DNA of 57,140 nt from Syntrophus aciditrophicus (GTDB lineage Bacteria; Desulfobacterota; Syntrophia; Syntrophales; UBA8958): assembly GCA_020718905.1 (NCBI GenBank), contig DYRD01000005.1, positions 1 through 57,140 on the forward strand, read 5' to 3'. Positions 1 to 57,140 of this stretch are shown here, one piece after another. A model generated the notes under the pieces. That model was not told the DNA's origin. It saw nothing but the letters and a program-made list of their open reading frames with translations, and ran no database searches. Each line of letters opens with the position of its first letter. Positions within the stretch are counted from its first letter, which is position 1. Made by a program: the position numbers and the translations under genes.

Positions 1-1
1 A

Positions 2-52
2 TTTCCCACTTATAAAAACCTGTATCCTGTCCAAACAACCCCCACCACCTCT
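2..52. repeat. Left copy of a 51-nt perfect terminal inverted repeat, probably the end of a repeated mobile element lying outside the window
   Basis: nt 2-52 are the exact reverse complement of nt 57090-57140. The match stops abruptly at 53 / 57089. The repeat cuts the neighbouring metallophosphoesterase frame just after a DLTH motif. Confidence 0.85.
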
Positions 53-321
53 GTGTGTCAAATCGACGGTAAATATGACAAACCTTGGCTGATATTTGAG
101 GTTATTAACGGCGTCGATCGCTTTCTTGAGCGTTCCCGTCGCATCCGGGTTTATAGTTGGGTTAGCAAATCCCCAATGGGTGTCTGAAATCTGGATGAAA
201 AAGAAATCATCTTTACTTGGGCCTGCCGCATCTGCCGTCTGATTCATATTGCTGAGGACCGATACAAAAACGACACTGCCAATTCCCGCTAGCTTCAAAA
301 ATCTCTCCTGTCGATGTTCAT
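53..321 (-). pseudogene. Tat-signal metallophosphoesterase, N-terminal fragment only; frameshifted and truncated
   Basis: GGAGGTG RBS then ATG at 321. It reads MNIDRRDF then TGA. The -1 frame continues LKLAGIGSVVFVSVLS...FFFIQISDTHWG...FVIFTVDLTH. The Tat motif RRDFLKLAG is only restored by a 1-nt change in the A5 run at 297-301. The frame then runs into the terminal repeat at 52. Confidence 0.6.
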
Positions 322-492
322 AAGCACCTCCCCTGAGATTCACACTAAAAAGGTCTTTATGATCAGCTCTTACGAGCATATTGTTTCACACACTATAAAA
401 AACAAGGGCAATTTAACAATCAGGGATTCCCTCATTTTAAACTTCGAAAAATCTTAATTCCCTGGCGGGAAAAGATCCTGGATCATATGACA

Positions 493-546
493 TTGGAGTA
501 TATGCCGCCTTATCGCTATGAATTGAATCCCAGTAACGGCGTCTGA
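493..546 (+). mobile_element. Possible IS630/Tc1-type transposase C-terminal remnant
   Basis: The short frame LEYMPPYRYELNPSNGV-stop resembles the conserved LPPYSPELNPIE motif of DDE_3 transposases. There is no upstream ORF. Confidence 0.3.
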
Positions 547-558
547 AAATTGACAGTC

Positions 559-586
559 ACTGGTTCAATCCCAGTACCGCCTACCA
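559..586 (+). other. Orphan tRNA 3'-end remnant (T-arm plus acceptor plus CCA), att-like scar
   Basis: ACTGG-TTCAATC-CCAGT T-arm, then ACCGCCT-A-CCA. No complementary 5' acceptor strand (AGGCGGT) occurs upstream. A hairpin plus T-run follows at about 599-628. Confidence 0.45.
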
Positions 587-826
587 TGAACATCAAGGGG
601 CTACGGAACAGGCCGTAACCGCTTTTTTATTGGCGGGTGTACCTTCCGGGTGCGTTTTTTATCTTTATCGGGTCAAATAGTCAGTGACATCTCAATCTGA
701 TTTAGGCTATTAATAGGTTGGAATCGAACATTCAGGTCGCTCCTTATTTATCATAGGGGCTGATTAGATGGACAAGGAACTCATCAATACATACCGTACT
801 CGGGAAAAGACTTTTAAAAAACAACC

Positions 827-1132
827 ATGAATGACGAAAAGAAGCCGAAATCACTAGCGGAAGCCGTGGACATGCTGCATGCCAACATGGGTTTGAACGA
901 CGAAATCATATTATCTACCATGAATGAAGAAGATCTCATTGATGTCCATGTTGCTCTTGGTTATCATATTGGGCATGAATTCGGACTCTTGACCGGAAAT
1001 ACCGCCCTCCTTGAATCTTGCCGTATAATGTCAGGAGAGGAAAATCTCCATATAGAGAGCGCATCAAAGCTGATTGTTAAAGCATTATGGGAACAGGTAA
1101 AAAAGTCAAATATACCTGCCGACCATGAATAA
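827..1132 (+). CDS. Hypothetical protein (101 aa)
   Basis: Clean ORF. No family recognised. Confidence 0.45.
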   Translation: MNDEKKPKSLAEAVDMLHANMGLNDEIILSTMNEEDLIDVHVALGYHIGHEFGLLTGNTALLESCRIMSGEENLHIESASKLIVKALWEQVKKSNIPADHE

Positions 1133-1172
1133 TATCGGGAGTATAGACAATCATCAATAAGGAGGGGTCGCG

Positions 1173-1739
1173 ATGGTAAAAAAGGTTATCGTGCTTTTGG
1201 GGAGTCCGAGAAGAAAAGGCAATAGCGCGATGCTGGCAGATCAGATGACCAAAGGGGCAAAATCCGCCAAGGGGAAGGTCGAACTTGTCTATCTCCAAGG
1301 CATGAACATCGCACCTTGCAAAGCCTGCTTTACATGCCGGAAGAAAAACAGCAAGGGCTGCTCAATCCAGGATGACATGCAAGAGCTTTATCCAAAGCTG
1401 ATCAAAGCCGAGGCATGGGTTATTGCCAGCCCTATTTATTGGTTTACCATGTCGGCACAGACAAAAATATTCATGGATAGATGTTTCGCATTGCCGGCTT
1501 ACGGAAATGATCCCTTCAAGGGCAAAAGGATTGCGGTCGCCATGACCTACGGTGGCGATGATCCCTTCGATTCGGGTTGTGTCAACGCCTTGAGAACTTT
1601 TCAGGACGCCTTTGGGTATATAGGAGCCAAGCTTGTCGGGATGGTCTATGGGAGTGCTATGGACGCCGGGCTGATCAAGTTCAATGATAAAGTCATGGAA
1701 GAGGCTTTCGAGCTGGGAAGGAAACTTGTTGCAGAGTGA
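1173..1739 (+). CDS. Flavodoxin-family / NADPH-dependent FMN reductase-like iron-sulfur flavoprotein
   Basis: N-terminus VIVLLGSPRRKGNS, a Cys cluster CKACFTCRKKNSKGC and ASPIYWFTMSAQTK are typical of this family. GGAGG RBS upstream. Confidence 0.75.
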   Translation: MVKKVIVLLGSPRRKGNSAMLADQMTKGAKSAKGKVELVYLQGMNIAPCKACFTCRKKNSKGCSIQDDMQELYPKLIKAEAWVIASPIYWFTMSAQTKIFMDRCFALPAYGNDPFKGKRIAVAMTYGGDDPFDSGCVNALRTFQDAFGYIGAKLVGMVYGSAMDAGLIKFNDKVMEEAFELGRKLVAE

Positions 1740-1818
1740 TCATTGCCATAATGAAGGATCGCGGCATGGCAGCAAAGGGGACTATTTGCCTTGAGAATCT
1801 TGGTAAAGGATAAATAAA

Positions 1819-6087: not shown

Positions 6088-7000
6088 ATGGTGGTGATGA
6101 CCTTTTTTACCTTGCTCCTCTTCAGCAGCGTCATTGTGACCCTCTCAAAGCTATACATCAGCCGGGATCTCCCCCTGGTCCATTCCCTTCCCGTCGCAGC
6201 GGAGCAGGTCTTCCTGGCCCGCTGGCTGGAGAGCCTGATTGACAGTTCCTGTATGGTGATCCTCTTCAGCCTGCCCATCCTTCTTTCCTACGGCATGGTT
6301 TTCAAGGTGGGCATATTTTTCTACGGGATGTCGTTTTTGTCCATCTTTTCCCTCTGTCTCGTGGCCTCGGGACTGAGCACCGTCGCCGTCCTGGAGGCAG
6401 CTACGGTCCTGCCGGCCGGGCAGATTCGCACGATTTCCGTCTTTTCCGGGGTCATGCTGATCCTGATCCTCGTCATCGCCGTACGGATGATGCGGCCGGA
6501 ACAGCTTGTCAACCCCGAGACCTTCGCCTCCGTCGCCGTTTACCTCCAATCCCTGGAGACCACGGGCTCGCCTCTCCTGCCCACGACCTGGAACTATTCT
6601 GAGCGAGATCCTGATTGTGGTCTCCAATATCCTCCTCGATGTGACCCCCTTCATGATGATCCTTTCCGTGACCACCGTGTTTTTCATGGTTCCCGGGATC
6701 GTGGCCCTGGGGATCGGTTGTGGGGCCGCCTATCCTGATTTTGCTTCGGAAAACCCCACCCAGACCGTGACCAGCTTCGGGGGACTCCTCTATATGACCA
6801 TCTGCGCGGGCTTTATCGCCCTGGTCATCGTCCTGGAGGCGGGGCCGGTCTATGCCGTTTTCATGCCCGGAATCAGGGGACGGGCCCTGGATGCCCTCCA
6901 ATGGGTCTGGCTCGCCGGGTCCTTTAGCCTGGTCTTCGTGCTATGCGCCCTGGCCGTGGCCCTTCCCATGCAGATGGGGGAGAAGCGCCTGCGGAGGTGA
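6088..7000 (+). pseudogene. Polytopic membrane protein (putative ABC-exporter-like permease), frameshifted
   Basis: Two hydrophobic ORFs (6088..6738 in frame 1, 6506..7000 in frame 2) join sensibly near 6585-6605 (...SPLLPTTW / ILSEILIVVSNILLDVTPF...). Short hydrophobic ORF scraps at 5700-6090 in other frames may be further pieces. Confidence 0.5.
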
Positions 7001-7050: not shown

Positions 7051-7405
7051 ATGGGGGTTGTTTTCATCTGTGGAGCCGGTGTGTCTCGCACACAGGCAGA
7101 TCTTCCTGATTTTTCTCTGTTGGCGCATTATGTTGTTCAAGAGTTAGGTGCAACATCTGAGGGTCCAGCACGACGAGTTCTTGAAGAAGCGGCAAAAATG
7201 GATCGAATCGCAGGTGTCACAGACGCTATTTCATATGACAGAATATTTGGATTCCTGGAGAACCTTTTCCGTCCGAGATATCGAAAGAGACGGTTTTATC
7301 CTGTCTGGCGCGGGTTTCCGTCGCGCCTATCTTACAGAAGGATGGGCGGCCTCTTTTATCAGATCGCTCTTGGATAACTATATTGTGGTTTTTGTCGGGT
7401 ATGCC
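7051..7405 (+). pseudogene. SIR2-like (SIR2_2 family) protein remnant, frameshifted and truncated
   Basis: N-terminus VVFICGAGVSRTQADLPDFSLLA. The frame changes near 7265 and continues SVRDIERDGF...LLDNYIVVFVGYA. No recognisable continuation after about 7405. Confidence 0.4.
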
Positions 7406-7567
7406 CAAATCGTCACCTGGGAGAAGCCTGCACTGATTGCCCTATGGAAAGCCCGGTGCGAAGCTGCCGCTGTGAACCGTGATTTTATCCATGCCCGCTG
7501 TCAGGCCGGAGAGGTTGGCGGCGAGGCTCTGGAAAATTATCGGGGTAAGATTGTAGAGCATTTCTTT

Positions 7568-7591
7568 CCCGTACATGGCCCCGTACATGGC
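7568..7591. repeat. Perfect 12-bp tandem duplication (CCCGTACATGGC x2)
   Basis: Read directly from the sequence. It lies in the non-coding or decayed stretch between the SIR2-like remnant and the crotonase gene. Confidence 0.9.
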
Positions 7592-7741
7592 TTTGGCAAA
7601 CTGAAGCCGGGAGAGGCACGCAAGGCCATCCGCTTTGCAACCAATCGTACGATTTTTTCGTACGATTGGACTGGCTACCCCACGGCAAACTGTAGGGTAG
7701 CTCATTGGGATGTCTCCAGATCACCTCTGAAACTATTGAAT

Positions 7742-8560
7742 CTATTGGTGTTTGCCTTTCTGTTTCTCCATTGACTTTACATAGGCGTCCTGAATGTCCT
7801 TCGTATTGAAAAAGGCCGAATTCCAGGCGGCGATGTATTTTAGGCCGTCATCAACGGAGTGATCTTCCATGTAGGTGAGAATCCTCTTCGTCCCTTTGAC
7901 TGCCGCCGAGGAGTTGTCGGCGATTTCTTCCGCCAGTTTAAGAGCGCCGGCCATCAGGCTGTCCTGATTTTCATAGATCTCGTTGATGAGCCCCATGCGC
8001 AGACATTCGTCGGCGGTAAAATCACGGCCCGTATAGGCCATCATGCGGGTGTTACCCTGGCCGATGATCTGGGGCAGGCGGTTCAGACTCCCCATGTCGG
8101 CCACGATGGCGATCCTCGTTTCCCGGATGGAGATGACCGTGTCCTTCGTTGCCAGGCGCAAATCACAGGCGGACATGAGATCGAGACCGGCGCCGATGCA
8201 GTGGCGATGGGCGGCGCCGATATAGATATTTTCCCCGTTGGCCATCCGGCTGAAACCTTCCTGCATCTGGAGGATAAGTTTATGGAATTCTTCTCTCTTA
8301 TCCGGCGTGGCCCCCTGGATGATCTCCGAGAAGGCGGTAAAAAAATCGAAGACATCGATGCCGACACTGAAAGATTTACCCTTGCCGGCGACAATGACGA
8401 CCCGGACATCGGAATCCTTCTCCAGATCACCCACGACAAAAGCGAGATCCCGCCAGAAGGGCCAGTTCATGGCATTAAGCTTATCCGCACGGTTCAGATA
8501 CAGGATGGCTATTTTCTTGTCCGCTATTTTTTCGACTTCGAAGAACGGGTAGTTGTTCAT
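7742..8560 (-). CDS. Enoyl-CoA hydratase/isomerase (crotonase) family protein
   Basis: KIAILYLNRADKLNAMN, VVIVAGKGKSFSVGIDV and AAHRHCIGAGLDLMSACDLR are crotonase signatures. Start at MNNYPFF with an AGGAG RBS. Confidence 0.85.
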   Translation of the reverse strand: MNNYPFFEVEKIADKKIAILYLNRADKLNAMNWPFWRDLAFVVGDLEKDSDVRVVIVAGKGKSFSVGIDVFDFFTAFSEIIQGATPDKREEFHKLILQMQEGFSRMANGENIYIGAAHRHCIGAGLDLMSACDLRLATKDTVISIRETRIAIVADMGSLNRLPQIIGQGNTRMMAYTGRDFTADECLRMGLINEIYENQDSLMAGALKLAEEIADNSSAAVKGTKRILTYMEDHSVDDGLKYIAAWNSAFFNTKDIQDAYVKSMEKQKGKHQ

Positions 8561-10614: not shown

Positions 10615-12849
10615 ATGTTTGGCATAGGGGCGATCATGGACAGCCTGCAAGTCTCCTATATCTCGATAATTACGCCGGTTCTCGGCCTCTTTGTCCTCAC
10701 CGGGCTGTCGTTTCTTGCCATCTTCCGGGGGGGGCGGAAGCCGATAAACATCCTCTTCGCCGTCATCTGCTTCATGGGGGCTCTCATCAATGCCGATGTG
10801 GCCCTGGTGAATGTCGTTCCCGACAAGAATCTCGCCATCAAGATTGACCGGTTAACTTACATGGTATTTATCTTCAGTCCCCCCGTCTATATCCAATTTG
10901 TTCATTATTTTCTGGGGATATCGAGGTGCCGCTGGCTGGAGTATCTGGCCTATGGTTTCAGCGCCATATTTTTGATCTTGACGCCCACGGACCTCTTCAT
11001 CAAAGGATTTGCTCAATTTGATTTCGGAATCATTGCCCAGGCGGGCAAGGCCTTTCATTTCTTTACCGTCCTGGCAAGTTTTACCGTCTGTTATTGTCTC
11101 TATACTCTCTTTATGGGAATGAAGAAGACACGGGAAAACCAGAAAAAGAATCGCATCAAGTACATCCTTTGGGGATTGGGGCTCAGTTCGTTTCTCATTG
11201 CTCTCAATATCCTCCCCGTCAGCGGACTCAATGTTTATCCCCTGGGGAACTTCAGTTTTATCCCCGCCATTGTCCTGGCCTTTGGGGTGCTGAAATACGA
11301 TCTCCTGGATATGGGGGCGGTAATCCGCAGAGGAACCATCTATTTCCTGCTCACCATCGTCCTGACTATCTTTTATGTTCTGATTATCGGTTTCTTCAAT
11401 ACCCTGTTCATCAGGAGTGGACAGACCCACCCCCTGCTGTTGCCATTTGTCCTCTCCCTGTTTATGGTCACTTTGTTTAACCCCATCCGGAAAAAGGTAC
11501 GGATATTTATCGATCGACTCTTCTTCCGGGGAAAATACGACTATCAACGTTTATTAAAAGAAGTCAGTGCTCAGATGACAACGCTCTTGCGGATTGATGA
11601 CGTCACTGATCTCCTGCTCAAATCGGTTGATGAAAATCTTCGGACCGACCAGGTAGCGTTACTGATTTTTGAGGAAAAAAGCAGTCGCTTGCAAGTGAAG
11701 CAGTTGGGAGGAGCCGCAGTCGATAGTTCATGGGAGGAAATAGATCATCAGCATCCGCTGGTTGCCTATTTGGAGGAGGTTAAGAGACCGCTGAGCGCCG
11801 CCCTGGTGAAATGTTCCGGATTATCGAATTATGAAAAAGCGGCCATTATCGATTTGATCAGGGCATGGAAATCGTCGCTGGTTGTGCCGATGCATTCCCA
11901 GGGGAGATTGATCGGCATCCTCGCTCTCGGACAGAAGAAATCGGGAGAACTTTTCGTCCACGAAGACATAGAGCTCTTATCCACCCTGGCCAACCAGAGC
12001 GCCACGGCCCTGGATAATGCCAAGATGTATAATGAACTGGAAAAGTTGAATCAGGAACTGGAAAGGAAGGTCGAAGAGAGGACTAGTGATTTGCGTCAGG
12101 CCCTTGCCGAGAAGGAAAGGACGCAGGAGCAACTTATTCAATCCTAAAGCCTCGCTGCCATTGGACAGCTTGTTGCGGGAACGGCCCATGAATTGAACAA
12201 CCCTCTTGCCAGTGCCGCAAGCCTTTTACAGAACAGCGCCGAAACAATCAGCGAATGGCCGGAGACGTTCAGGGAGCGGGAAGAAGTAATAGATGATCTG
12301 ACCTTTCCCCTGAAAGAGCTGAGAAGAGCCGGGGATATCGTCAGGAGCCTCCTGGGTCTTACCCGCCAGACCCAGACTTATGTAGAACCGGTCAATATCA
12401 ATGTTGCCATTGATGACGCCCTGCGGGTTCTCCACAACCAGCTTAAGACCCTCCCCGTATCCATCGAGAAGAACTATGAAGAAGCACTGCCGCCGGTGGA
12501 GGGTAATTTTGCCAATCTGGGGCAGGTTTTCATCAATACAATCAAAAATGCCCTCCAAGCCCTAGAGGAGGGAAAAGGGGTGATCAGCCTCAAGACCAGT
12601 TACCGAAGGGAAACGGACTCCGTATTTTTCGAATGTCGGGATACGGGAGAGGGCATCCCGGCGGCCCATCTTAAAGATATTTTTAAACCATTTTATAAAT
12701 CGAAACCGCTGGGAAAGGGAACGGGATTGGGATTATACATCTCTCACGAGATTATCAAGCGACACGGTGGAGACATCTCCGTTTCCACTGAACCGGGGAA
12801 GGGGTCGGTCTTTGTAATCGAACTTCCCTGCAAAAGGGGGGAAGGATGA
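10615..12849 (+). pseudogene. Membrane sensor histidine kinase (7TM sensor region, GAF-like domain, HisKA, HATPase_c) interrupted by an in-frame TAA
   Basis: ORFs 10615..12147 and 12193..12849 are in the same frame. Reading through TAA at 12145-12147 gives ...EQLIQS*SLAAIGQLVAGTAHELNNPLAS, a canonical H-box helix. The HATPase motifs (N, G1 DTGEGI, G2 GTGLGL) lie in the downstream part. Confidence 0.8.
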
Positions 12850-13908: not shown

Positions 13909-13985
<77 letters not shown>

Positions 13986-13990
13986 AGAAA

Positions 13991-14030
13991 CTAAGGGGGT
14001 TAGCGAAGCAGCTTAACCCCCTTAGTTTTT
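13991..14030 (+). terminator. Rho-independent terminator after tRNA-Met
   Basis: CTAAGGGGGTTA...TAACCCCCTTAG 12-bp stem followed by TTTTT. Confidence 0.7.
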
Positions 14031-41887: not shown

Positions 41888-41918
41888 AATTTAAATATTA
41901 TCGAGGAGAAAATAGATC

Positions 41919-42566: not shown

Positions 42567-43576
42567 AGACCCTCGACGAGCTTGAAAAAGAGGCGATCCT
42601 GGAGTTGCCCGGAGCGACTTCGGAGGATGCCCTGAACGAGCTGCGCACCAGATATCTGGGCCGCAAGGGTTTGTTGACGCAAATGCTCCGCCAGATCAGC
42701 ACAGTAACCGCCGCAGAGAAACCTCTCTTCGGGAAGCGGAGCAATGAAATAAAAGAAAGCCTTGCTCATGCCATTGATGACGCCTTGGAAATGCTCAAGG
42801 CCTCCCGCAAGGATCAGGTCCTCCTCAAGGAAACTATCGATGTAACCCTGCCGGGACGGGGGGTGAGGCTCGGCCGTCTCCATCCCGTTACGAGAGTTTC
42901 TCAGGAAATATGCCGGATCTTTTCCCGGATGGGATTCAATGTTGTCGAGGGCCCGGAAGTCGAGACCGATTACTACAATTTTGAGGCATTGAATATCCCC
43001 AAGGATCATCCAGCCCGGGACATGCAGGATACATTTTATGTGGAAGATAACATCGTTCTGAGGACCCATACTTCGCCGGTCCAGATCAGAACCATGGAAA
43101 AGATGAAACCGCCGGTCCGGATCCTTTCCCCCGGGCGGGTTTATCGTCCCGATTCCGATGTTTCTCATACCCCCATGTTTCACCAGGTCGAGGGTCTCAT
43201 GGTGGACAAGGGTATAACCTTCGGAGATCTGAAAGGAACCTTGACCTACTTTCTGAGGCAGATCTTTGGAGCGGACATTCTCCTCAGGTTTCGTCCCAGT
43301 TTTTTCCCCTTTACCGAACCCAGCGCGGAAGTGGACCTCCGGTGCGTGATGTGTACAGGCAAAGGATGCCGGGTGTGCGGTCAGAGCGGCTGGTTGGAAA
43401 TACTTGGCTCCGGAATGGTCGATCCGGCGGTTTTTGAAAATGTGGGCTACGATCCGGAGGAAGTGACGGGATTTGCCTTCGGTCTGGGCGTGGAAAGAAT
43501 TGCCATGCTTAAATACGGCATATCGGATATACGCCTCTTTTTTGAGAACGATGGACGCTTTTTGGAGCAGTTTTAA
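42560..43576 (+). CDS. pheS: Phenylalanine--tRNA ligase alpha subunit
   Basis: [21 protein letters not shown] and [12 protein letters not shown] class II motifs. Confidence 0.95.
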
Positions 43577-43579
43577 GAT

Positions 43580-45994: not shown

Positions 45995-46034
45995 GCAATA
46001 TAGCGAACAATAGTGGAGGACAGGAGGTAGAACC

Positions 46035-46310
46035 ATGACGAAAATAGATATTATTCAGGACGTTTACGAGAAGCTTGGTTTTTCAAAGAAGGATTCGGCA
46101 AGGATCGTGGAATCGGTTTTCGATATTATGAAAGACTGCCTGGGCCGGGGAGAAAAGATAAAGATATCCGGGTTCGGGAACTTTGTGGTGAAGGAAAAGA
46201 AGTCCCGGCGCGGCCGGAACCCCCAGACGGGCAAAGAAATCGAGATTTCTGCGCGCCGCGTCCTCACCTTCAAATCAAGCCAGGTTCTGCGCAAGGCACT
46301 GAACGTTTAG
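46035..46310 (+). CDS. ihfA: Integration host factor alpha subunit (HU/IHF family)
   Basis: GFGNFVVKEKKSRRGRNPQTGKEIEISARRVLTFK arm motif. Conserved position after pheT. Confidence 0.85.
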   Translation: MTKIDIIQDVYEKLGFSKKDSARIVESVFDIMKDCLGRGEKIKISGFGNFVVKEKKSRRGRNPQTGKEIEISARRVLTFKSSQVLRKALNV

Positions 46311-46347
46311 TTCCTGAGCGCAAATCCGGCAATGTGGGGCGCTTTGC

Positions 46348-46689
46348 ATGGACGTGTCGATTCCTGACAAGACCTATTTCCGAATTGGCGAAGTCAGCAG
46401 CATCCTCGGGGTGGAGCCTTACGTCGTCAGATACTGGGAGTCGGAGTTCAAATCGGTCAAGCCTGTCCGTACGAGGTCAGACCAGCGGCTTTACCGGCGT
46501 AAAGACCTGGAAGAACTGCTGATCATCAGGGACCTTCTCTATAAGGATCATTTTACGATCAGAGGCGCCCGGGATGAGCTCTCCAGGAGGGGAGCAATCA
46601 CCTGTCAGGAAGGCGCGGCGGACCAGGAAAGGCAGCTACTGGCGGATATCAAGGTCGTACTGAGGCAGATAAGAGAAATTGTTTCCTGA
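46348..46689 (+). CDS. MerR-family transcriptional regulator
   Basis: YFRIGEVSSILGVEPYVVRYWESEF HTH signature. Confidence 0.8.
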   Translation: MDVSIPDKTYFRIGEVSSILGVEPYVVRYWESEFKSVKPVRTRSDQRLYRRKDLEELLIIRDLLYKDHFTIRGARDELSRRGAITCQEGAADQERQLLADIKVVLRQIREIVS

Positions 46690-46729
46690 CCAAGGGAGCC
46701 CGTAGCCGTGAGGTTGCGGGCTCCCTTGG
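46690..46729 (+). terminator. Stem-loop directly after the MerR-family gene (13-bp perfect stem)
   Basis: CCAAGGGAGCCCG, a 14-nt loop, then CGGGCTCCCTTGG followed by TTGTTGG (weak U-tract). Confidence 0.5.
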
Positions 46730-46773
46730 TTGTTGGCGTTATTTCGGTTCCAACTCAAGACCCTATCTTCGTT

Positions 46774-46801
46774 GTCGAGGGGTCGTCCTCGACCCCTCGA
46801 C
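46774..46801. repeat. 28-nt palindromic hairpin (12-bp perfect stem, 4-nt loop)
   Basis: GTCGAGGGGTCG-TCCT-CGACCCCTCGAC in the convergent intergenic region. REP-like or a terminator for the minus-strand gene. Confidence 0.6.
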
Positions 46802-46889
46802 GTATTTCCCTATAGGCCTGCGAAAGCCTCTTTCCTCGCGCCGCCGCGAGTGCATCTTGGCTTTGGAGCCGGAATTTGTGGAATTGGAA

Positions 46890-47183
46890 TTATTTCTTCT
46901 TCTTCGCGCGGCTCGCCCGTTTCGATGCCTTCAGAGGGTTGATTTTCTGCGCAGTCTCTTTGATTTCCAGTTTAACGTGGGTTGCGGTGACGCAATTTCC
47001 GATTAACCACTTGCTGGCCGGGTCCATATAAACCCGACAGTAACGGCCCGTATCCAGATCGATGATCCGGTTGCATCCCTCGCATTTTTCAATAATGGTC
47101 TTACAGGCGCCGTCTTTAAAATCACACCCCTTGAGCTTCATAAAGACACAATCCGTGCCCGTTCTGATAGTCTGACAAATCAT
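46890..47183 (-). CDS. PxxKW-family cysteine-rich small protein
   Basis: MICQTIRTGTDCVFMK..GC....ACK...EKCEGC...YC..Y.DPASKW..GNC..ATH. GAGGTGA RBS. Confidence 0.65.
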   Translation of the reverse strand: MICQTIRTGTDCVFMKLKGCDFKDGACKTIIEKCEGCNRIIDLDTGRYCRVYMDPASKWLIGNCVTATHVKLEIKETAQKINPLKASKRASRAKKKK

Positions 47184-47331
47184 TTCTTTCACCTCAAAAA
47201 AAAAAGTTGAAGTAACTAACAAAAAAACATACCTCTGTCAAGGATAAAGGGGAATGAATTGACTTAACAGGATTTCCGTGTTAGGAATACAATGATTGTA
47301 GGCCTGTATCGGCCAGGAGAGATGAGGGAGG

Positions 47332-48072
47332 ATGAAGGCATCGGATTTGGCCGGGTTTTTTTTACGGTCTCTTTTTATTATGGCATCGCTGAATTTCCAG
47401 AGAATGCAAAACTTGGGGTTCGCCTTTGCCATTCTTCCTCTCTCGCGAAGAATGGGAAAAGACGAAAAGAGAATTTCTTCATTTCTTGTCCGACATCTTG
47501 AATATTTCAATACCCATCCTTATTTATCCGGTGCCGTGCTCGGCTCGGTCATCGCCTTGGAGACCGCTAACGGACATCATGAGCAGACGCCGGACATATC
47601 AAGATTGAAAAAATCCCTCATGGGTCCTTATGCTGCCATTGGAGACAGTTTTTTCTGGGGAAGTCTGCGCCCCCTGGCCGGTATTTCCGCCGCCGCCATG
47701 GCCTATCAGGGTTATTCCTGGAGCCCATTTGTGTTGTTGCTCCTCTTTGATCCCATGCATCTCTGGATCCGTCTGAAGGGTTTTATTGAGGGTTACCGGC
47801 ACGGTTGGCAGGGTATCACTTTTATCCAATCATGGGATTTGCCGCGCTTGGCCCGTTTCATACGCTGGGGAACAATATTGTGCCTTTCCATTGCTACGGC
47901 ATGTCTCGGGCGGGAGATCGCCACCGCCTACTCAGGAATATGGATACAACCCCTTGTTGGCATGGCGGTGCTTGCGGCGGTACTGCTGTCTTTTATGGGT
48001 ATGGAACGAGGCCTGTCTCCCCTGGCGATCCTTTATGGCATGACAGCCGGCTGCATGGCCCTGATGATTTGA
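47332..48072 (+). CDS. PTS mannose/fructose/sorbose-family IID component
   Basis: SLNFQRMQNLGFAFAILP...RHLEYFNTHPY...LMGPYAAIGDSFFWGSLRP match the ManZ-type IID signatures. Confidence 0.75.
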   Translation: MKASDLAGFFLRSLFIMASLNFQRMQNLGFAFAILPLSRRMGKDEKRISSFLVRHLEYFNTHPYLSGAVLGSVIALETANGHHEQTPDISRLKKSLMGPYAAIGDSFFWGSLRPLAGISAAAMAYQGYSWSPFVLLLLFDPMHLWIRLKGFIEGYRHGWQGITFIQSWDLPRLARFIRWGTILCLSIATACLGREIATAYSGIWIQPLVGMAVLAAVLLSFMGMERGLSPLAILYGMTAGCMALMI

Positions 48073-48073
48073 C

Positions 48074-48343
48074 ATGCAGGAGATAAAGAACTTTGAGGTT
48101 AAAAACAAGTTAGGAATCCATGCCCGCGTAGCGGCAAAGCTTGTAGCGACGTCGAGTCGCTTCAAGTCCCGAATCTTCTTCGAATACGACGGGCAAGAGG
48201 TCAACGGCAAGAGTCTCCTTGGCATCCTTACCCTCGCTTGTTCCCGGGGCGGATTCATAACCGTTAAAGTGGAGGGCAGCGATGCCGTCGAGGCCCTGAC
48301 AGCTTTGGAAGGTTTGTTTGCAGAAAAGTTTGGTGAGGACTGA
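48074..48343 (+). CDS. ptsH: Phosphocarrier protein HPr
   Basis: NKLGIHARVAAKLV (His-15 region) and GKSLLGILTL (Ser-46 region). Confidence 0.9.
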   Translation: MQEIKNFEVKNKLGIHARVAAKLVATSSRFKSRIFFEYDGQEVNGKSLLGILTLACSRGGFITVKVEGSDAVEALTALEGLFAEKFGED

Positions 48344-48345
48344 TA

Positions 48346-50157
48346 ATGGGTATAATCATTCATATGGTACCGGAACAAAACATGAAAAACGTTGTCGTCA
48401 AAGGAATCGGCGTCTCGCCGGGGGTAGTGATCGGCAAGGCCTACCTGTTTGATCGTCGGGATTCTCAGATTTCTTTTTATAAACTGGGTAAGGCCAGTCT
48501 GGTAACAAAGGAAGTCAAGAGGTTTCGAGACGCCCTGCGGGCCTCGGAGGCACAATTACGGGAGGTAAAGAGCCGTCTTAGCGAAGTAGCGGGACTCGAA
48601 CCGCTACATATTATGGATGTCCACATTATGCTTCTCAAAGACCGGTCCTTCGTGCGCAATGTTGTGCGTCTGATTAAGGAGACGTCTGTAAACGCCGAAT
48701 GGGCTGTCAGTATGACCGTCGATAAATACCGGGAGTTGTTTGAGAAAATGGATGATGAGTACCTCCGGGATCGCTTCAGCGATATCCGTTATGTAGGACA
48801 AATGATCCTCCGGCACCTTGCCGGCAGACGGCAGGAAACCATCTCTCCGCTGGGGGAGAGGGTCATAGTCATCGCCTCGGATTTATCTCCTGCCGATACG
48901 GCCCAGATGATGATCGACAAGGTTCTCGGTTTTGCCACCGATATCGGCAGCAAAACATCCCATACCGCTATTGTGGCCCGTTCCATTGCCATCCCTGCCG
49001 TTGTCGGCTTGGAGAAAGTCACCCGTTTGGTGCGGACAAACGATGATATTATTATCGACGGCGCCGCCGGTCTGGTCATTGTCAATCCCGATCCCGAGAT
49101 CCTCTTTCGTTATGAAGAAAAGAAGCATCTTCATCAGATGGCCCGGGAAGTATCCCTAAAATATGCAAAATTTCCGGCGATAACGAAGGACCACTATAAA
49201 ATTCAAATCGGCAGTAATATCGAATTCATTGAAGAAATTCCTTCCGCCATCGCAAACGGGGCCGAAGGGATTGGTCTGTACCGCACGGAATTCATTTATA
49301 TTAATCGCGAGGAGCTGCCAACTGAGGAAGACCACTTTCTCAATTACCGCCGGGTTATCGGTGTTGAAGGTCTGCAGTGGTCTACTATTCGCACGTTTGA
49401 CTTGGGAGGGGATAAATTCTTCTCCGATCCGAAGTTAGCCAAAGAGATGAATCCTCAGATGGGTTTACGGGCCATCCGTTTCTGCCTGCAAGAAGTCAAT
49501 TTGTTCAAAGTGCAGTTGCGAGCGATCCTGCGGGCCAGCGCCTTCGGGAAAACAAGAATTCTCTTCCCCATGATTTCGGGAATCGAGGAAATTCTCGCCG
49601 CTAAAAAGATCCTCGCGGAAGTCCGGGAAGATCTAAGGGTGGAAGGAGAGGCTGTAGGGGAGGACATTGAAATAGGCGCCATGATTGAGGTGCCTTCCGC
49701 GGTGGTCATCGCCGAAGCTCTTGCCAAGGAGGTTGATTTCTTCAGTATCGGGACAAACGATCTCATTCAGTATGTTTTGGCCATCGACCGGATCAATGAC
49801 CGCGTGTCCTACCTTTATGAGCCACTCCATCCGGCCGTCCTGAAGATGATCAAGGAGGTTGTCGATGCCGGTCATCGGGCCGGCATACCTGTTGCCATGT
49901 GCGGTGAAATGGCCGGTGATCCTTTATATGCGATGATTCTGCTGGCCCTGGAAATCGATGAACTGAGCATGAACCCCCTCGCCATTCCGAAGGTTAAAGA
50001 GATCATCCGGGCGGCGACCCTGAAGGATTCAAAAAAGCTCCTTAAAGAAGTAGTGAAGATGTCCTCGGCTGCGGAAATCCGGGAACTTGTGGAAAAGACC
50101 ATGCGGGAAAGATATCCCGCCGACTTTCCCGGAAACGGCACATTGATAAATGCGTAA
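48346..50157 (+). CDS. ptsI: Phosphoenolpyruvate--protein phosphotransferase (PTS enzyme I)
   Basis: GSKTSHTAIVARS active-site His motif and PEP-utilizer C-terminal IGTNDL, CGEMAG. The start may be the internal ATG at 48382. Confidence 0.9.
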   Translation: MGIIIHMVPEQNMKNVVVKGIGVSPGVVIGKAYLFDRRDSQISFYKLGKASLVTKEVKRFRDALRASEAQLREVKSRLSEVAGLEPLHIMDVHIMLLKDRSFVRNVVRLIKETSVNAEWAVSMTVDKYRELFEKMDDEYLRDRFSDIRYVGQMILRHLAGRRQETISPLGERVIVIASDLSPADTAQMMIDKVLGFATDIGSKTSHTAIVARSIAIPAVVGLEKVTRLVRTNDDIIIDGAAGLVIVNPDPEILFRYEEKKHLHQMAREVSLKYAKFPAITKDHYKIQIGSNIEFIEEIPSAIANGAEGIGLYRTEFIYINREELPTEEDHFLNYRRVIGVEGLQWSTIRTFDLGGDKFFSDPKLAKEMNPQMGLRAIRFCLQEVNLFKVQLRAILRASAFGKTRILFPMISGIEEILAAKKILAEVREDLRVEGEAVGEDIEIGAMIEVPSAVVIAEALAKEVDFFSIGTNDLIQYVLAIDRINDRVSYLYEPLHPAVLKMIKEVVDAGHRAGIPVAMCGEMAGDPLYAMILLALEIDELSMNPLAIPKVKEIIRAATLKDSKKLLKEVVKMSSAAEIRELVEKTMRERYPADFPGNGTLINA

Positions 50158-50178
50158 AGAAACGATTGTACACATTAA

Positions 50179-52818
50179 ATGATGCCTTTATTGGGAAAGA
50201 TGGAGAGATGGGTCCACGAATCTCGTCATTACAAGCGGGAAAGTTTGTATGCCGAGGGTAATTTCCCCTTGAACTGGCTCGTTAAGAAGGTCCTCTCCAA
50301 GATACCTTTTGATATGGAGGCTGTTGACTTTCTTAAGAAGCTTCATAGCGAGGGATTGGTCATTTACGCCCTGAAGGATCGCAGCCAGCTCAACAGCCTG
50401 ATCATCAGGGACCTGGCCTTGCGTAAAGGGCTTCCCACCCCCGTCTATAGCCATGATGTCAATATGACCATGTGGCAACCCTTCCTCATTGCCCTGCGTG
50501 TCACGGCGTCGCTTCTCCGGCGTCTTTTTTATCGCCCCAGAGAATCGGAAGAGAACGCCGACAATACACTCCGGGATCACGTTGCCGCCGGCAATACTTT
50601 TATCATTCATCTCGGGGGGTCTGAATTCTTCGAGAACAGGAAGGTTGAAGAGGCCCTTGCTTCCCTTGTTGATGCGCAAAAGATCTTTGACAGGCCGATA
50701 TATATCGTTCCTGTCCTCGTGACGTACGGGCGGAGGAGAGAAAAGGAAAAGGAGAGCCTGATGAATATCCTCTTCGGCCAGACGGATAATACCATGTTCC
50801 TCCAGCGCTTGATCACCTTTCTTCGCTATGCCAACAATATCTTCGTAATGCCCACGGACCCCGTGGAGTTGTCTCAGTTTATCAGTGAAAATGCAGAAAC
50901 GCCGACCGTGACTCTGATTAAGAATCTACGCCGGGAGCTGATCGAGCGAATTGACGAAGAGAAAACGGTTCTGGTGGGCACTTTCCTGAAATCACGGCAG
51001 GAGCATATCAGCATGGTCCTCAAAGAGCCGGGGCTTATCAATTACATGGAAAACATGGCTGCCGTGGGGAAAAAGGACTATCCTGCCCTGGCCAGAGAAG
51101 CACGAAAGTACCTTAATGAGATAGCCGCTGATTATAGTAATGTGCTTATTGAGGTGTGGGCGCGGATTTTGTCGTGGCTGTGGAACAATATCTATGACGG
51201 CGTTGTAGTCGACCGGGAAGGAATGGCAAGAATACGCAATATATCCAAGAAGATGCCATTTGTTGTCATCCCCTGTCACCGCAGCCATATTGATTATTTG
51301 CTTCTGTCTTATATCTTTTATGAGCATCATATTCAGTTGCCCTTCGTTGCCGCGGGAACGAATATGGCCTTCGGGCCCTTCGGGTATATCTTCAGAAAAT
51401 CGGGGGCCTTTTTTTTGCGACGGAGTTTTTGCGGCAATCCATTTTATGCGGAAGTCTTTGCCAAGTATCTGGAAGTTTTGATCAAGGAAGGATTGCCGAT
51501 CGAATTTTTCATTGAGGGGGGGCGCAGTCGGACCGGAAAGATGGTGATGCCGAAATATGGTCTCCTCTCAATGATAATTCAGGCTTTTCAGCAACAGGCC
51601 ACGGAAGATCTCGCTGCCATCCCCATATATATTGGTTATGACCGTGTTATCGAGGAGAAATCCTATTTGAAGGAATTGGGAGGGGCTCCCAAAGAACAGG
51701 AAAAAACGACGGATGTCATTAAAAGTTCCAAAGTGCTCCGCAAGCGTTATGGCAGCGTCTATGTGAACATTGGCGAACCTATATTCCTCAAATCCTATCT
51801 GGGCGGCCAGGATAACGCCTTTGCCGACATGAACGTCGAAGAAAGGCAGCGTCTGTATCGGCGGATCGGTTATGAGATTGCCTTATCCATCAATAAGGTG
51901 TCCGTCGTCACACCCTTTGCCATTATTTCCGCCGGTCTTTTATCCCATGATCGTCGCGGTGTCAGTCACGACGAACTGATGGAGATCCTAGATGAGTTTT
52001 ATGAATACCTAATCCATCGCCAAGTAAGTCTGGCGGCAACCTTTGTTCACCGTGAGAAGGCTATTCAGGACGCCTTGCTCCTTTTCGACCAGTCAGGACT
52101 GATTTCGAGGATGGGGGAAGAAGAGGGTGAAGAAGCGGACCTGGAGGAAATCGTCTACAGCCTCGACGACAGCAAACGCCTTAATCTCGAATATTATAAA
52201 AACAATATCCTCCATTTCTTTCTTCCCTTAAACTTCGTGGCCACATCCATGCTTGCCCATCCCGAAGATAACATTCCCCTCGGATTGATTCTTGAGGATT
52301 ATCGCTTCCTCAAACGGCTTTTCTGGAACGAGTTCATCTTCGATCAGGAGCGGGAGGAGGGAGAGGACGTGAACGGCGCCCTGTCCTATCTCCATAGCCG
52401 GGGGATGATTGCCGTGGAAAGGCGGGGTGAAAATGGGGACACATGCTTGGAAGTAAAAGGCAGGGGCAGGACAAACCTGCGACCCTTTGCCGGCCTTATC
52501 GAAAACTATATCCAGTCATACTGGGTTGTCATCCGGGCCTGCGCCTATCTGCGTAAAGGGCCGAAATCGGAAAAGGAGTGGCTGAAAAATATCCACAAGC
52601 TCGGGTCGAAGATGTTCAGAAAAGGAGAGGTCAGCCGGGCGGAAGCCCTCTCCCAGGCAAACTACCAGAATGCCATGATCGCCCTCCAGGAAGCCGGAAT
52701 TCTGAACCTGTCGGAAAGCATCGATAAAAGAGACAGGAAGGAAGGAAAGACTTACTCCCTAAACCCTGACCGGCGAGCCCAGGAATCTCTCCGCCGCCGC
52801 TTATTCCGTTTTCTGTAA
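50179..52818 (+). CDS. plsB: Glycerol-3-phosphate 1-O-acyltransferase
   Basis: HRSHIDYLLLS (HX4D), FFLRRSF and IEGGRSRTGK motifs, 879 aa. Confidence 0.85.
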   Translation: MMPLLGKMERWVHESRHYKRESLYAEGNFPLNWLVKKVLSKIPFDMEAVDFLKKLHSEGLVIYALKDRSQLNSLIIRDLALRKGLPTPVYSHDVNMTMWQPFLIALRVTASLLRRLFYRPRESEENADNTLRDHVAAGNTFIIHLGGSEFFENRKVEEALASLVDAQKIFDRPIYIVPVLVTYGRRREKEKESLMNILFGQTDNTMFLQRLITFLRYANNIFVMPTDPVELSQFISENAETPTVTLIKNLRRELIERIDEEKTVLVGTFLKSRQEHISMVLKEPGLINYMENMAAVGKKDYPALAREARKYLNEIAADYSNVLIEVWARILSWLWNNIYDGVVVDREGMARIRNISKKMPFVVIPCHRSHIDYLLLSYIFYEHHIQLPFVAAGTNMAFGPFGYIFRKSGAFFLRRSFCGNPFYAEVFAKYLEVLIKEGLPIEFFIEGGRSRTGKMVMPKYGLLSMIIQAFQQQATEDLAAIPIYIGYDRVIEEKSYLKELGGAPKEQEKTTDVIKSSKVLRKRYGSVYVNIGEPIFLKSYLGGQDNAFADMNVEERQRLYRRIGYEIALSINKVSVVTPFAIISAGLLSHDRRGVSHDELMEILDEFYEYLIHRQVSLAATFVHREKAIQDALLLFDQSGLISRMGEEEGEEADLEEIVYSLDDSKRLNLEYYKNNILHFFLPLNFVATSMLAHPEDNIPLGLILEDYRFLKRLFWNEFIFDQEREEGEDVNGALSYLHSRGMIAVERRGENGDTCLEVKGRGRTNLRPFAGLIENYIQSYWVVIRACAYLRKGPKSEKEWLKNIHKLGSKMFRKGEVSRAEALSQANYQNAMIALQEAGILNLSESIDKRDRKEGKTYSLNPDRRAQESLRRRLFRFL

Positions 52819-52825
52819 CCCTTTT

Positions 52826-55031
<2,206 letters not shown>

Positions 55032-55043
55032 GGTTAAATAGCT

Positions 55044-55517
55044 ATGACAGCAAAAGAAAAGAGTGCGGAAAAGATCATTGCCCAGAATAAAACGGCGCGC
55101 CTCCACTATTTTATCGATGAGACCTATGAGGCGGGCATTATTCTGGTAGGGACGGAGGTAAAATCCCTGCGGGAAGGGCGGGCCAATCTCAAGGACAGCT
55201 ATGCCGTGGTCAGGGAAGGGGAGGTGTTTCTCCATGAACTCCACATCAGTCCCTATACCTTCGGAAACCGCAATAATCATGAGCCGCTGCGCGTCCGGAA
55301 ACTCCTCCTCCATAATCGCGAGATCAAGCGTCTATACGGGAAATCCCGGGAGCGGGGCTTGAGCATCGTGCCTCTGAAGCTCTACTTCAAGCGGGGCAAG
55401 GTGAAGGTGGAAATCGGCGTCGGCCAGGGTAAAAAGCTCTATGATAAACGGGACGAACTAAAGAAGCGGGATGACCGCCGGGACATGGCCAGAGCCATGT
55501 CGGAGAAAAACAGGTAG
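55044..55517 (+). CDS. smpB: SsrA-binding protein
   Basis: [13 protein letters not shown]...GTEVKSLR...LLLHNREI signature, 157 aa. Confidence 0.95.
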
Positions 55518-55546
55518 GGCGTTTCCATCCTTGCAGCTCCTTTGTC

Positions 55547-55575
55547 TTGACTTTGCCCGATACAGGGTTTAATAT
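55547..55575 (+). promoter_or_regulatory. Sigma-70 promoter for ssrA
   Basis: TTGACT, a 17-nt spacer, then TAATAT, about 65 nt upstream of the mature tmRNA 5' end. Confidence 0.5.
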
Positions 55576-55641
55576 GCAGCCGTGTTTATGTTTTGCTCTT
55601 TGGCAGCGACCACTCCAAAAGGTGTATTCATTATCGCATAT

Positions 55642-55994
55642 GGGGGCGTCACGGTTTCGACGGGGATAGTTGAAGCTGTAGCAGCGTACCGAGGTTCCTA
55701 CAGGCCTCGTTAAACAGGTAGGAAAACCATAATCGCAGACAACTACGATTACGCCTTAGCCGCGTAAGACGGCTAACGTCCTCCTGACCATGCCTGCCGG
55801 GTCAGACAGGGCGCAATACAGGTAGGATAGCCGAACTCTCAGGCCTGGGGGGAGGGACGCGAAATCTTTCAGGATAGTCAAGGCTCATCCTGCCTTTGGG
55901 AGGGACTGTTGGCGAACGCAAATCAAAGGCTATGTACGTAGAACCTGCAGTGGAATATTTCCGGACGGGGGTTCAACTCCCCCCGCCTCCACCA
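55642..55994 (+). ncRNA. ssrA: tmRNA (transfer-messenger RNA)
   Basis: 5' GGGGGCGUCACGGUUUCGACGGGG. Tag ORF GCA GAC AAC TAC GAT TAC GCC TTA GCC GCG TAA (ADNYDYALAA) at 55735-55767. 3' tRNA-like end GGACGGGGGUUCAACUCCCCCCGCCUCCACCA. Follows smpB. Confidence 0.95.
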
Positions 55995-56119
55995 ATGGAT
56001 GGTTTTATCTAGTCCAAGGAAGTAAAAAACCCGTTAGAAATAGCTGGTTTTTTGTTGCCGGTTGTCCAAGGATGTGCTATAGAGTTTATCAAAATCCGGC
56101 GCCTAAAAGAATATCTCCA

Positions 56120-56260
56120 CTATCAGAAAACAAAATCAATACCGCAAGAATTACTGAGAAAGCTTACAGACTTTTTGACGGCGGTGGCCTCTTCCTTTTG
56201 ATCACGCCTAATGGAAGCAAAAGGTGGCGGTTCAAGTATCGCTTCGAAGGGAAGGAAAAA
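56120..56260 (+). pseudogene. P4-type tyrosine integrase, isolated N-terminal fragment
   Basis: LSENKINTARITEKAYRLFDGGGLFLLITPNGSKRWRFKYRFEGKEK matches the arm-binding N-terminus of tmRNA/tRNA-targeting integrases. Homology ends at 56260. Confidence 0.65.
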
Positions 56261-56414
56261 TGTTATCATTCGGCTGGAAGCCGAGAGAACACCCTCCGTT
56301 CGTGTCACTATTGATGGGAAAATTGAGATATGGAAGGGAAGCAACATCATACGTCTTTCATGGGATGAAGCCCAATTTATTGCAAACATGCTGACCAACA
56401 TAGTGAAGTGAGTT

Positions 56415-57089
56415 ATGCCACTGAATGACCTGAAAGTCCGAACTTCAAAGCCCAAAGAAAAACCTTTCCGTTACCGCTACGACGGCAAGGAGAAGCTGTT
56501 GTCTCTTGGCACATATCCCGATATCCCTTTCTGACGCCAGGCATCGGAGGGATGAAACCCGAAAGCAGATCGCCCACGGTATTGACCCCGGAGCCCTCCG
56601 TAAGGCCATGAAGCAGGCAGAGACCGAAGAAACAGAAACATTTGAGGTCATAGCCCGTGAATGGCACGCAAAATTTACACCGACATGGACGCCGGGACAT
56701 TCCGCCACGATCATGAGTCGCTTGGAACGTGATCTTTTCCCTTGGATTGGCAAGAAACCGATTGCATCAATTAAAGCCCCCGAACTTTTGGCTGTCCTTC
56801 GTCGTGTCGAAAGTCGGGGGGCTCTGGAATCGGCACATCGTATCAGGACTATCTCCGGACAAGTGTTCAGATATGCTGTTGCCACAGGAAGGGCCGAACG
56901 GGACCCGGCAGCGGATCTTCGAGGAGCATTACCACAACTAAGCGAAAAACATCTTGCAGCGATAACAGATCCGAAAAAAGTTGCACCACCTCTAAGGTCC
57001 TTAGACGGTTATCAGGGGCATTTCGTCGTAAAGTGCGCCCTCAGGCTACTTGCCCCCCTGTTTTTTGTCCGTCCTGGGGAACCACGTAG
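56415..57089 (+). pseudogene. P4-type tyrosine integrase with an internal deletion, a frameshift and 3' truncation by the terminal repeat
   Basis: MPLNDLKVRTSKPKEKPFR|YRYDGKEKLLSLGTYPDI lacks the DGGGLYL..P.GSK.WR block. There is a frameshift near 56525. It then reads SLSDARHRRDETRKQIAHGIDP...SGQVFRYAVATGRAERDPAADLRGAL...LLAPLFFVRPGE. The catalytic domain is missing, cut at 57089/57090. Confidence 0.75.
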
Positions 57090-57140
57090 AGAGGTGGTGG
57101 GGGTTGTTTGGACAGGATACAGGTTTTTATAAGTGGGAAA
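57090..57140. repeat. Right copy of the 51-nt perfect terminal inverted repeat
   Basis: Exact reverse complement of nt 2-52. It begins inside the integrase frame just after RPGE. Confidence 0.85.

Follow-up and report, generated by a model that had tools for sequence, protein, structure and literature searches.

Recent, lineage-specific inactivation of accessory genes as the probable state of a 57-kb contig from a putatively Syntrophales-like bacterium of sulfidic cave biofilms

Gene content and broken genes

The window analysed here is the whole of contig DYRD01000005.1, a 57-kb (57,140-nucleotide) chromosomal contig whose gene map comprises approximately 61 coding sequences or remnants, and the subject is the decay of its accessory genes. 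Sixteen of the ca. 61 (26%) are clearly broken and up to three more are suspect (Table 1). With a background pseudogene rate of 5%, the binomial probability of 16 broken genes among this number is ca. 4e-8. An earlier reading made from the letters of the contig (hereafter, the sequence-only reading) had listed about 13 broken genes out of roughly 58. Split or truncated matches to Pfam and NCBIfam profiles were obtained for all 13, and the decay proved somewhat larger, with at least three further broken genes and one whole-gene deletion. The damage beyond the earlier list consists of a cytochrome b5/DUF2231 gene, a small twin-arginine translocation (TAT)-target open reading frame (ORF), an Fe-S protein gene, a lost transglycosylase gene and a 30-bp deletion in an LhgO-like gene.

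The broken genes serve in signalling, defence and transport, or in accessory redox and maturation functions. The core genes, which had been described as intact, are indeed uninterrupted and carry full Pfam domain sets. Lesion positions cluster at 0-35 kb and at the island beside the transfer-messenger RNA (tmRNA) gene, and 36-55 kb is free of them; no lesion was found in the housekeeping block at 35.9-55.5 kb.

Table 1. Coordinates, strand and state of the broken genes and associated features in the window
Feature	Position	Strand	State
Terminal 51-nt repeat	2..52		Perfect inverted copy of 57090-57140
Tat-signal metallophosphoesterase	53..321	-	1-bp deletion in T5 run 297-301; cut by terminal repeat after ...FTVDLTH
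ABC_tran_2-type polytopic permease remnant	6088..7000	+	Internal deletion of ~190 codons and frame change at ~6591
Dsr1-like SIR2 (defence sirtuin) remnant	7051..7774	+	Two frames; ~240 of ~1260 residues left
GAF-HisKA-HATPase sensor kinase	10615..12849	+	TAA 12145-12147 between GAF and HisKA domains
Degraded islet at tRNA-Met	13937..16280		Bounded by 57-nt duplication of tRNA 3' half
IS4 transposase remnant in tRNA-Met islet	14109-14435	-	Last 40 residues of IS4 transposase
AbiEii gene	14588-15271	-	3'-truncated; Pfam 1-150 of 238 only
AbiEi gene in tRNA-Met islet	15268-15885	-	Intact
Cytochrome b5/DUF2231 gene	16458..17100	-	5' end lost, ~26 codons
UbiA prenyltransferase	17087..17983	-	TAG 17438-17440; 3' end deleted, fused to next gene
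Small TAT-target ORF of formate dehydrogenase (FDH) region	23547..23738	-	Start and RR motif lost by ~70-nt deletion; fused to TorD-like frame
TorD-like (Nitrate_red_del) chaperone	23703..24328	-	Frameshift, A7 to A6 at 23814-23819
Fe-S protein of FDH cluster	24325..26007	-	Open ORF without ~95 residues kept in 5/5 relatives; junction ~25521-25623
CoxE-like VWA gene	26395..27763	-	In-frame TAA 27671-27673; frameshift at A7 run 27533-27539
Thiamine pyrophosphate (TPP)-dependent enzyme (516 aa in relatives)	28569..30126	-	8-bp tandem duplication 28664-28679; 1-bp deletion in C run 28966-28971
C_GCAxxG_C_C gene, most likely of a selenoprotein	30154..30613	-	Ancestral TGA 30554-30556, most likely selenocysteine; 1-bp deletions at 30543 and ~30321
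DUF374 gene	30725..31562	+	+1 frameshift, C8 to C9 at 31243-31251
Deletion scar	31556..31822		260 nt, no trace of 642-aa transglycosylase-domain gene
LhgO-like flavin adenine dinucleotide (FAD) oxidoreductase (DAO)	33785..34944	-	1-bp deletion ~34683; 30-bp deletion at 33854
Housekeeping block, ~24 uninterrupted genes	35982..55517		rsmI, pgsA, thrS, infC, rpmI, rplT, pheST, HU, ptsHI, plsB, eno, smpB and others
Two tandem tyrosine-integrase remnants	56072..57089	+	Beside tmRNA gene (55642-55994)

Provenance and reproducibility of the lesions

The thrS-plsB block matched a Logan contig of run SRR1559353 with 100% identity over 12 kb. The run belongs to a set of eight metagenomes, sequenced on the Illumina HiSeq 2000 from sulfur-rich biofilms of the Frasassi and Acquasanta sulfidic caves (Italy), for which the original Joint Genome Institute (JGI) pipeline combined SOAPdenovo, Newbler and minimus2 contigs, and eukaryotic contigs made up 12-13% in the source biofilm type (PMC4288042). 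The metagenome matches point to Frasassi sulfidic cave biofilms as the habitat. In a scan of genome collections, the FDH alpha subunit was most similar (91% amino-acid identity) to that of a metagenome-assembled genome (MAG) designated 'Syntrophaceae bacterium fen_1170', followed by Syntrophobacterales and Smithellaceae MAGs, which suggests that the source bacterium is Syntrophales-like (Desulfobacterota).

The lesions recur in other assemblies. Logan contigs of SRR1559353 were 100% identical, lesions included, to window positions 571-3310, 3349-13931, 25204-30999, 30982-35678 and 39250-51265, as were those of SRR404114 to 14676-25215 and 25211-30992, and a contig of JGI 3300000230 to 10740-14725. 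Furthermore, two NCBI MAG contigs carried the same split genes without any indel, one over 16809-26275 with five single-nucleotide polymorphisms (SNPs) and the other over 45044-57140 with two; the MAGs of this lineage are GCA_974003655.1 and GCA_020720005.1. The lesions were consequently shared by six assemblies from three pipelines (Logan on two Illumina runs, JGI and two NCBI MAGs). They are real rather than technical and are fixed at the consensus level, because the chemistry was Illumina, many of them are substitutions or long deletions, and they were reproduced across pipelines. On the matching contigs, gene callers annotated the fragments of broken genes as separate ORFs. A search of the window against Rfam returned only the tmRNA and two tRNAs (tRNA-Met and tRNA-Val), with no annotated frameshift or recoding element.

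Derived state of the lesions

Twelve contigs with 85-90% nucleotide identity, found in one scan of a metagenome collection, are syntenic with window positions 7.7-14.0 kb and 28.6-38.9 kb, and a MAG contig with ca. 80% identity (L002) is syntenic with 16.5-26.0 kb. The intactness of genes in these relatives was judged by a longest-open-frame check, which is blind to the shift in the C_GCAxxG_C_C gene, since by chance no stop codon interrupts the shifted frame.

None of the shared genes was disrupted among up to 10 relatives. Single intact ORFs were present for the TPP-dependent enzyme (516 aa; 10/10 relatives in the ORF check), the sensor kinase (748 aa; 3/3), the LhgO-like oxidoreductase (397 aa; 6/6) and the DUF374 protein (293 aa; 4/4), and the UbiA and TorD orthologues were intact in L002, L003 and L006. 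In total, a lesion specific to the window stood against an intact orthologue for the kinase, UbiA, TorD, TPP, C_GCAxxG_C_C, DUF374, LhgO-like, cytochrome b5/DUF2231, TAT-target and Fe-S protein genes. Alignment with orthologues from related genomes, the check proposed with the sequence-only reading, showed every comparable indel or stop codon to be specific to the window. Given that relatives at 85-90% identity are intact, all lesions open to comparison with close relatives are, on these alignments, derived in the window lineage.

The deletions measure ca. 200, ca. 70, ca. 285 and 30 nt, in addition to the entire transglycosylase gene. Judged from the alignments, deletions of this length, gene loss and domain-level truncations cannot be produced by sequencing error. 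Stop-codon reassignment was also considered and rejected, since the in-frame TAA and TAG codons each occupy a sense codon of the relatives, and all three stop codons (TAA, TAG and TGA) end intact genes nearby.

Lesions at individual loci

At the left end, the T5 run of the metallophosphoesterase gene splits MNIDRRDF from LKLAGIG inside the RRxFLK motif. When one T was added to 297-301, the twin-arginine signal was regained (TIGR01409, 18.3 bits; cut-off 16.7). The homopolymer frameshift suspected in this gene was thus upheld; the accompanying truncation was not, being a break at a repeated element that starts at 52/53. The two frames of the permease matched PF16949 at 52-219 and 408-539, with a junction at ca. 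6591 that falls within the interval previously given for the break (about 6585-6605). Similarly, the neighbouring SIR2-like gene, also read as broken, is a small remnant whose two frames match the Dsr1 sirtuin profile NF041818 at 23-62 and 179-217 of 1263 positions.

The stop codon that had been noted in the sensor kinase gene is a nonsense change, with GAA at the same position in 3/3 relatives. In UbiA, the profile matches lie one on each side of the TAG (2-132 and 135-236), and the corresponding codon encodes Tyr in L002, in accordance with the earlier view of this stop. An additional deletion of ca. 200 nt has removed the 3' end of UbiA together with the first ca. 26 codons of the cytochrome b5/DUF2231 gene.

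Further downstream, the structural genes of the FDH cluster (alpha, beta and cytochrome b) are intact, and the TorD-like chaperone, the TAT-target ORF upstream of fdhA and the Fe-S protein are damaged. The suspected frameshift in the A6 run of the TorD-like gene was borne out by the A7 found in relatives, and the Fe-S protein gene is possibly a cryptic pseudogene. Given the damaged accessory genes, FDH maturation may be impaired. The N-terminal piece of the CoxE-like gene, with its TAA, and the C-terminal ORF were colinear on NF047783 (8-72 and 191-475), a split match in line with the break already proposed.

The block at 16.3-28.6 kb, which comprises UbiA, the FDH operon, CoxE and a lipoprotein gene, is absent from the closest relatives and syntenic in a more distant Syntrophaceae MAG. 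Together with the tRNA islet, it forms a 14.5-kb segment (14004-28568) at a site occupied in the closest relatives by a single gene for a 996-aa PAS hybrid histidine kinase (11586-14579 in the sister contig L083). The right boundary of this segment coincides exactly with the stop codon of the TPP gene (28569).

Both lesions reported for the TPP gene, the 8-bp duplication and the change from C7 to C6, were confirmed against 11/11 relatives, and its indels add up to a net length change of +7. The frameshift reported in the DUF374 gene arose when C8 became C9. The sister L083 has an in-frame C8 at this site (9190-9200), and the runs of more distant relatives are interrupted (CCCGCCCC); on this comparison, the slippery C run is older than the frameshift. 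Between the DUF374 and RNase H genes, a region of 2-4.5 kb in 9/9 relatives contains a gene for a 642-aa transglycosylase-domain protein, and L083 has three further ORFs at this locus (4060-8570). The DAO domain of the LhgO-like gene is distributed over two frames (1-81 and 81-348); here the frameshift assigned to 34681-34684 was verified as a 1-bp deletion, and the 30-bp deletion came in addition.

Probable selenoprotein gene with an in-frame TGA

The C_GCAxxG_C_C gene had been read as carrying a nonsense TGA and two frame shifts. The two shifts were retained, with a net length change of -2, and the TGA as a lesion was not, being conserved in all intact relatives: in L083, L092 and L082 at the level of translation, and in L086, L088 and L089 in the nucleotide alignment. 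It occupies the position of the first conserved Cys of the family. The PF09719 match extended over 2-118 with 90.5 bits when the TGA was read through and over only 27-118 with 61.7 bits when it was not. Additionally, a conserved stem-loop begins 5 nt after the TGA, with a predicted free energy of -18 to -21 kcal/mol in relatives and -15.4 kcal/mol in the window. This hairpin (ca. 30510-30550; L083 9569-9620) resembles a selenocysteine insertion sequence (SECIS), and one of the 1-bp deletions of the window lies inside it, weakening the stem. Given the conservation of the TGA at a Cys position, the need for read-through and the hairpin that follows, the in-frame TGA is most likely a selenocysteine codon with a putative SECIS element rather than a nonsense mutation. 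The window itself contains none of selA, selB, selC and selD.

Mobile-element scars and contig ends

The frames of the metallophosphoesterase and of the second integrase copy halt exactly where the 51-nt repeat of the contig termini (GGTGGTGGGGGTTGTTTGGACAGGATACAGG...) begins. A MAG contig (L169, 12047-12165) runs 68 nt past the end of the window into the repeated element, and no transposase was recognisable in this 68-nt extension. The 51-nt repeat probably marks the terminus of a repeated element resembling an insertion sequence (IS), at which assemblers stop. Since both end genes stop at the repeat, their truncations would represent interruptions by copies of this element. The IS content seen in the window amounts to one IS4 remnant and the element end shared by the two contig termini.

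A second copy of the 3' half of tRNA-Met lies 2.3 kb downstream of the first (13937-13993 and 16224-16280; 57 nt, 89% identity). Within the islet so delimited, the altered 3' end previously noticed in AbiEii was corroborated by the partial Pfam match and by the C-terminal IS4 remnant downstream of it. By its architecture, the islet is a decayed integrative element with a duplicated attachment site (att) and an AbiE pair whose toxin gene is truncated.

At the other end of the contig, the first integrase remnant is an N-terminal stub (56072-56311), and the second copy, internally deleted and frameshifted at ca. 56525, is cut at 57090 by the terminal repeat; the arm domain of the integrase is found in two frames (1-49 and 49-82). 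The frameshift and the deletion proposed for the integrase were thus substantiated, and its truncation is instead a break at the repeated element. Overall, the mobile-element activity suggested earlier found support in the IS4 remnant, the att duplication at tRNA-Met, the tandem integrase remnants and the repeat at both ends.

Substitution rates

Substitutions were counted at the codon level by parsimony on the window branch and on that of its sister L083, with the other relatives as the outgroup. In intact genes, the window branch had 82 non-synonymous changes (N) compared with 37 on the sister branch (p = 5e-5) and 191 synonymous changes (S) compared with 135 (p = 0.002), giving N/S values of 0.43 and 0.27, respectively (Fisher p = 0.049). 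In broken genes, the corresponding numbers were 140 and 66 for N, 193 and 135 for S, and 0.73 and 0.49 for N/S. The window branch accordingly carried 1.4 times the synonymous and 2.2 times the non-synonymous changes of its sister. In a rooted tree of the TPP gene, the window was the sister of L083, nested in the clade, and had the longest root-to-tip path. The FDH cluster likewise showed a twofold asymmetry between the window and L002.

Interpretation of the decay

The pattern is most probably one of recent, lineage-specific inactivation of dispensable genes no longer protected by selection, from which an early stage of reductive evolution is inferred. The sequence-only reading had proposed an ongoing pseudogenisation of accessory genes; a real and recent process of this kind was supported by the reproducibility and derived state of the lesions, the deletions and the IS and integrase scars. 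Many dispensable genes would have been inactivated recently by ordinary spontaneous mutations that selection no longer purged, through slippage at short homopolymers, one tandem duplication, nonsense substitutions, deletions of 30-2000 bp and insertions or excisions of mobile elements. Purifying selection would persist on translation, lipid and glycolytic genes. The cause would be relaxed selection or stronger drift, brought about either by a reduced effective population size or by a niche that has narrowed to dependence on a partner or host, and the stage would be that of early reductive genome evolution. That a recent dependence on a partner, such as a microbial eukaryote, a cave animal or an obligate syntrophic consortium, drives this early genome reduction is conceivable but doubtful.

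An origin of the frameshifts and stops in sequencing, consensus or chimeric-assembly errors of a metagenome contig is very improbable. Five single-base indels do lie within runs of at least five identical bases, the JGI pipeline merged contigs from several assemblers, and several of the assemblies may rest on the same reads. However, the reads are of the Illumina HiSeq type, the lesions are identical across pipelines and two runs, and two MAGs that differ by SNPs have the same lesions without indel differences. Moreover, substitutions, an 8-bp duplication and deletions of 30-2000 bp account for many of the lesions, and the 20-kb housekeeping stretch of this contig is lesion-free. The earlier argument that mixed lesion types speak against a single technical cause therefore gained support from the agreeing assemblies, the derived state and the long deletions. 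Its reliance on homopolymer indels did not, as slippage is an ordinary mode of bacterial indel formation and says little either way.

An unlikely but more serious alternative is that the first 35 kb represents a variable, island-rich neighbourhood of decaying dispensable genes and that pseudogenes are no commoner than usual elsewhere in the genome. The confinement of lesions to this region and the tmRNA island, the tRNA-Met islet and defence genes (AbiE, Dsr1-like) within it, and the 12-kb block at 16.3-28.6 kb, in place of which the closest relatives have the PAS kinase gene, are consistent with such local decay. However, the kinase, TPP, C_GCAxxG_C_C, DUF374 and LhgO-like genes and the lost transglycosylase gene belong to a syntenic neighbourhood that is intact in up to 10 relatives, and these six genes are therefore not island cargo; intact housekeeping-type genes also have approximately twofold more non-synonymous change than those of the sister. 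A raised mutation supply, in which a repair-deficient mutator generates the lesions, or in which some long runs (C9, A7) serve as phase-variable switches or allow partial rescue by transcriptional slippage, so that inactivation would be incomplete, is less probable still. The synonymous count is 1.4-fold above that of the sister, several lesions are homopolymer indels, and the run at the DUF374 site, an in-frame C8 in L083, has lengthened to C9 in the window. Such rescue, through polymerase slippage along long poly(A) tracts, has precedents in insect endosymbionts. Nevertheless, the substitution spectrum agrees with that of L083, with no transition excess or other mutator signature, most of the runs are short (2-7 nt), and the TPP, C_GCAxxG_C_C, UbiA, CoxE and LhgO-like genes have at least two lesions or large deletions, which are beyond slippage rescue.

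Several observations weigh against early reductive evolution under weakened selection. The evidence is confined to 57 kb, and the pseudogene fraction of ca. 26% is a local rather than a genome-wide figure. The assemblies are only partly independent, as SRR1559353, SRR404114 and JGI 3300000230 may derive from the same or sister libraries. The metallophosphoesterase, permease, SIR2, AbiEii, CoxE and integrase genes were judged by family profiles only, without close orthologues. The N/S of the window branch is only modestly raised (Fisher p about 0.04-0.05), and the root-to-tip distance of fdhA in the window is within the range of its own clade. The spectrum is unchanged, with transition/transversion ratios of 1.85 and 2.01 and GC>AT/AT>GC ratios of 1.21 and 1.27 in the window and sister, respectively. 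The GC content is 54.7% in both, and the AT drift of long-term symbionts is absent; AT bias or a falling GC content is expected late, not early, in reductive evolution. Finally, neutral evolution would give a far higher N/S than the 0.73 of the pseudogenes; the inactivations would therefore be recent relative to the divergence of ca. 10% from the sister, and the process may be young or local.

Comparison with known systems

Among Desulfobacterota, the decay resembles that in the Desulfovibrio symbionts of termite-gut Trichonympha, in which many accessory genes are pseudogenes, core and energy genes are kept and ongoing pseudogenisation is visible in the population (PMC7608387). 'Ca. Desulfovibrio trichonymphae' Rs-N31 has 188 pseudogenes and 1082 coding sequences, and ZnDsv-02 has 86 and 1257, respectively; unlike the window, these symbionts have a demonstrated host association and genomes reduced to 1.4-1.6 Mb (PMC7608387). 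The window differs from them in its higher local pseudogene fraction (ca. 26%), its Syntrophales-like affiliation and its cave biofilm origin, the latter two as suggested by the database matches.

Sodalis glossinidius, the weevil symbiont SOPE, Mycobacterium leprae, Shigella and Yersinia pestis became restricted to hosts recently and are rich in both pseudogenes and IS elements. They share with the window a mix of frameshifts, nonsense changes and deletions, IS scars, intact informational genes and faster protein evolution. In contrast to them, the 57 kb analysed here contains no evidence of host restriction, massive IS expansion or AT bias. As in ordinary degraded tRNA and tmRNA islands, the tRNA-Met islet and the tandem integrase remnants have the classic features of decayed integrative elements. 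Such island decay accounts for only ca. four of the ca. 16 broken genes; the remainder belong to the conserved chromosomal gene set, with intact copies in all relatives.

A literature search retrieved no report of such decay in any Syntrophales-like bacterium or in the Frasassi community. The process is a known one, in a lineage where a description is apparently lacking. Pseudogene-rich genomes mark a recent change of lifestyle, such as host restriction, a bottleneck or dependence on a new partner, and the well-studied cases are almost all pathogens or symbionts of insects and protists. If the decay extended genome-wide, the lineage would bring such a case within reach in a chemoautotrophic subsurface ecosystem, and its close intact relatives could serve for comparison. 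If partner dependence were true, it would be the first such case in the order and a natural system for studying early gene loss, including that of selenoprotein and FDH maturation genes. Automatic annotation of such MAGs over-counts genes, with fragments entered as ORFs, and over-predicts metabolic capacities such as FDH.

Uncounted candidates and minor observations

The ORF pairs at 3185-3869 and 37838-39129 were considered as frameshifts and rejected, as they are separate, intact small genes that overlap. An additional candidate pseudogene at ca. 5680-6075, with two in-frame stops, was left out of the count, having no family match. Within the first of these pairs, the 87-aa ORF at 3606-3869 had no Pfam match; it begins with a signal-peptide-like sequence, carries a haem-binding CXXCH motif towards its C-terminus and might encode a mini cytochrome c. 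In the housekeeping block, a gene of the EIID type of the phosphotransferase system (PTS) stands alone beside the HPr and enzyme I genes (47332-50157), with no EIIC, EIIA or EIIB gene nearby. The 4HBT_2 thioesterase ORF at 1819-2199 matches only positions 1-71 of 122 in Pfam and appears ca. 20 residues short, possibly through an in-frame deletion.

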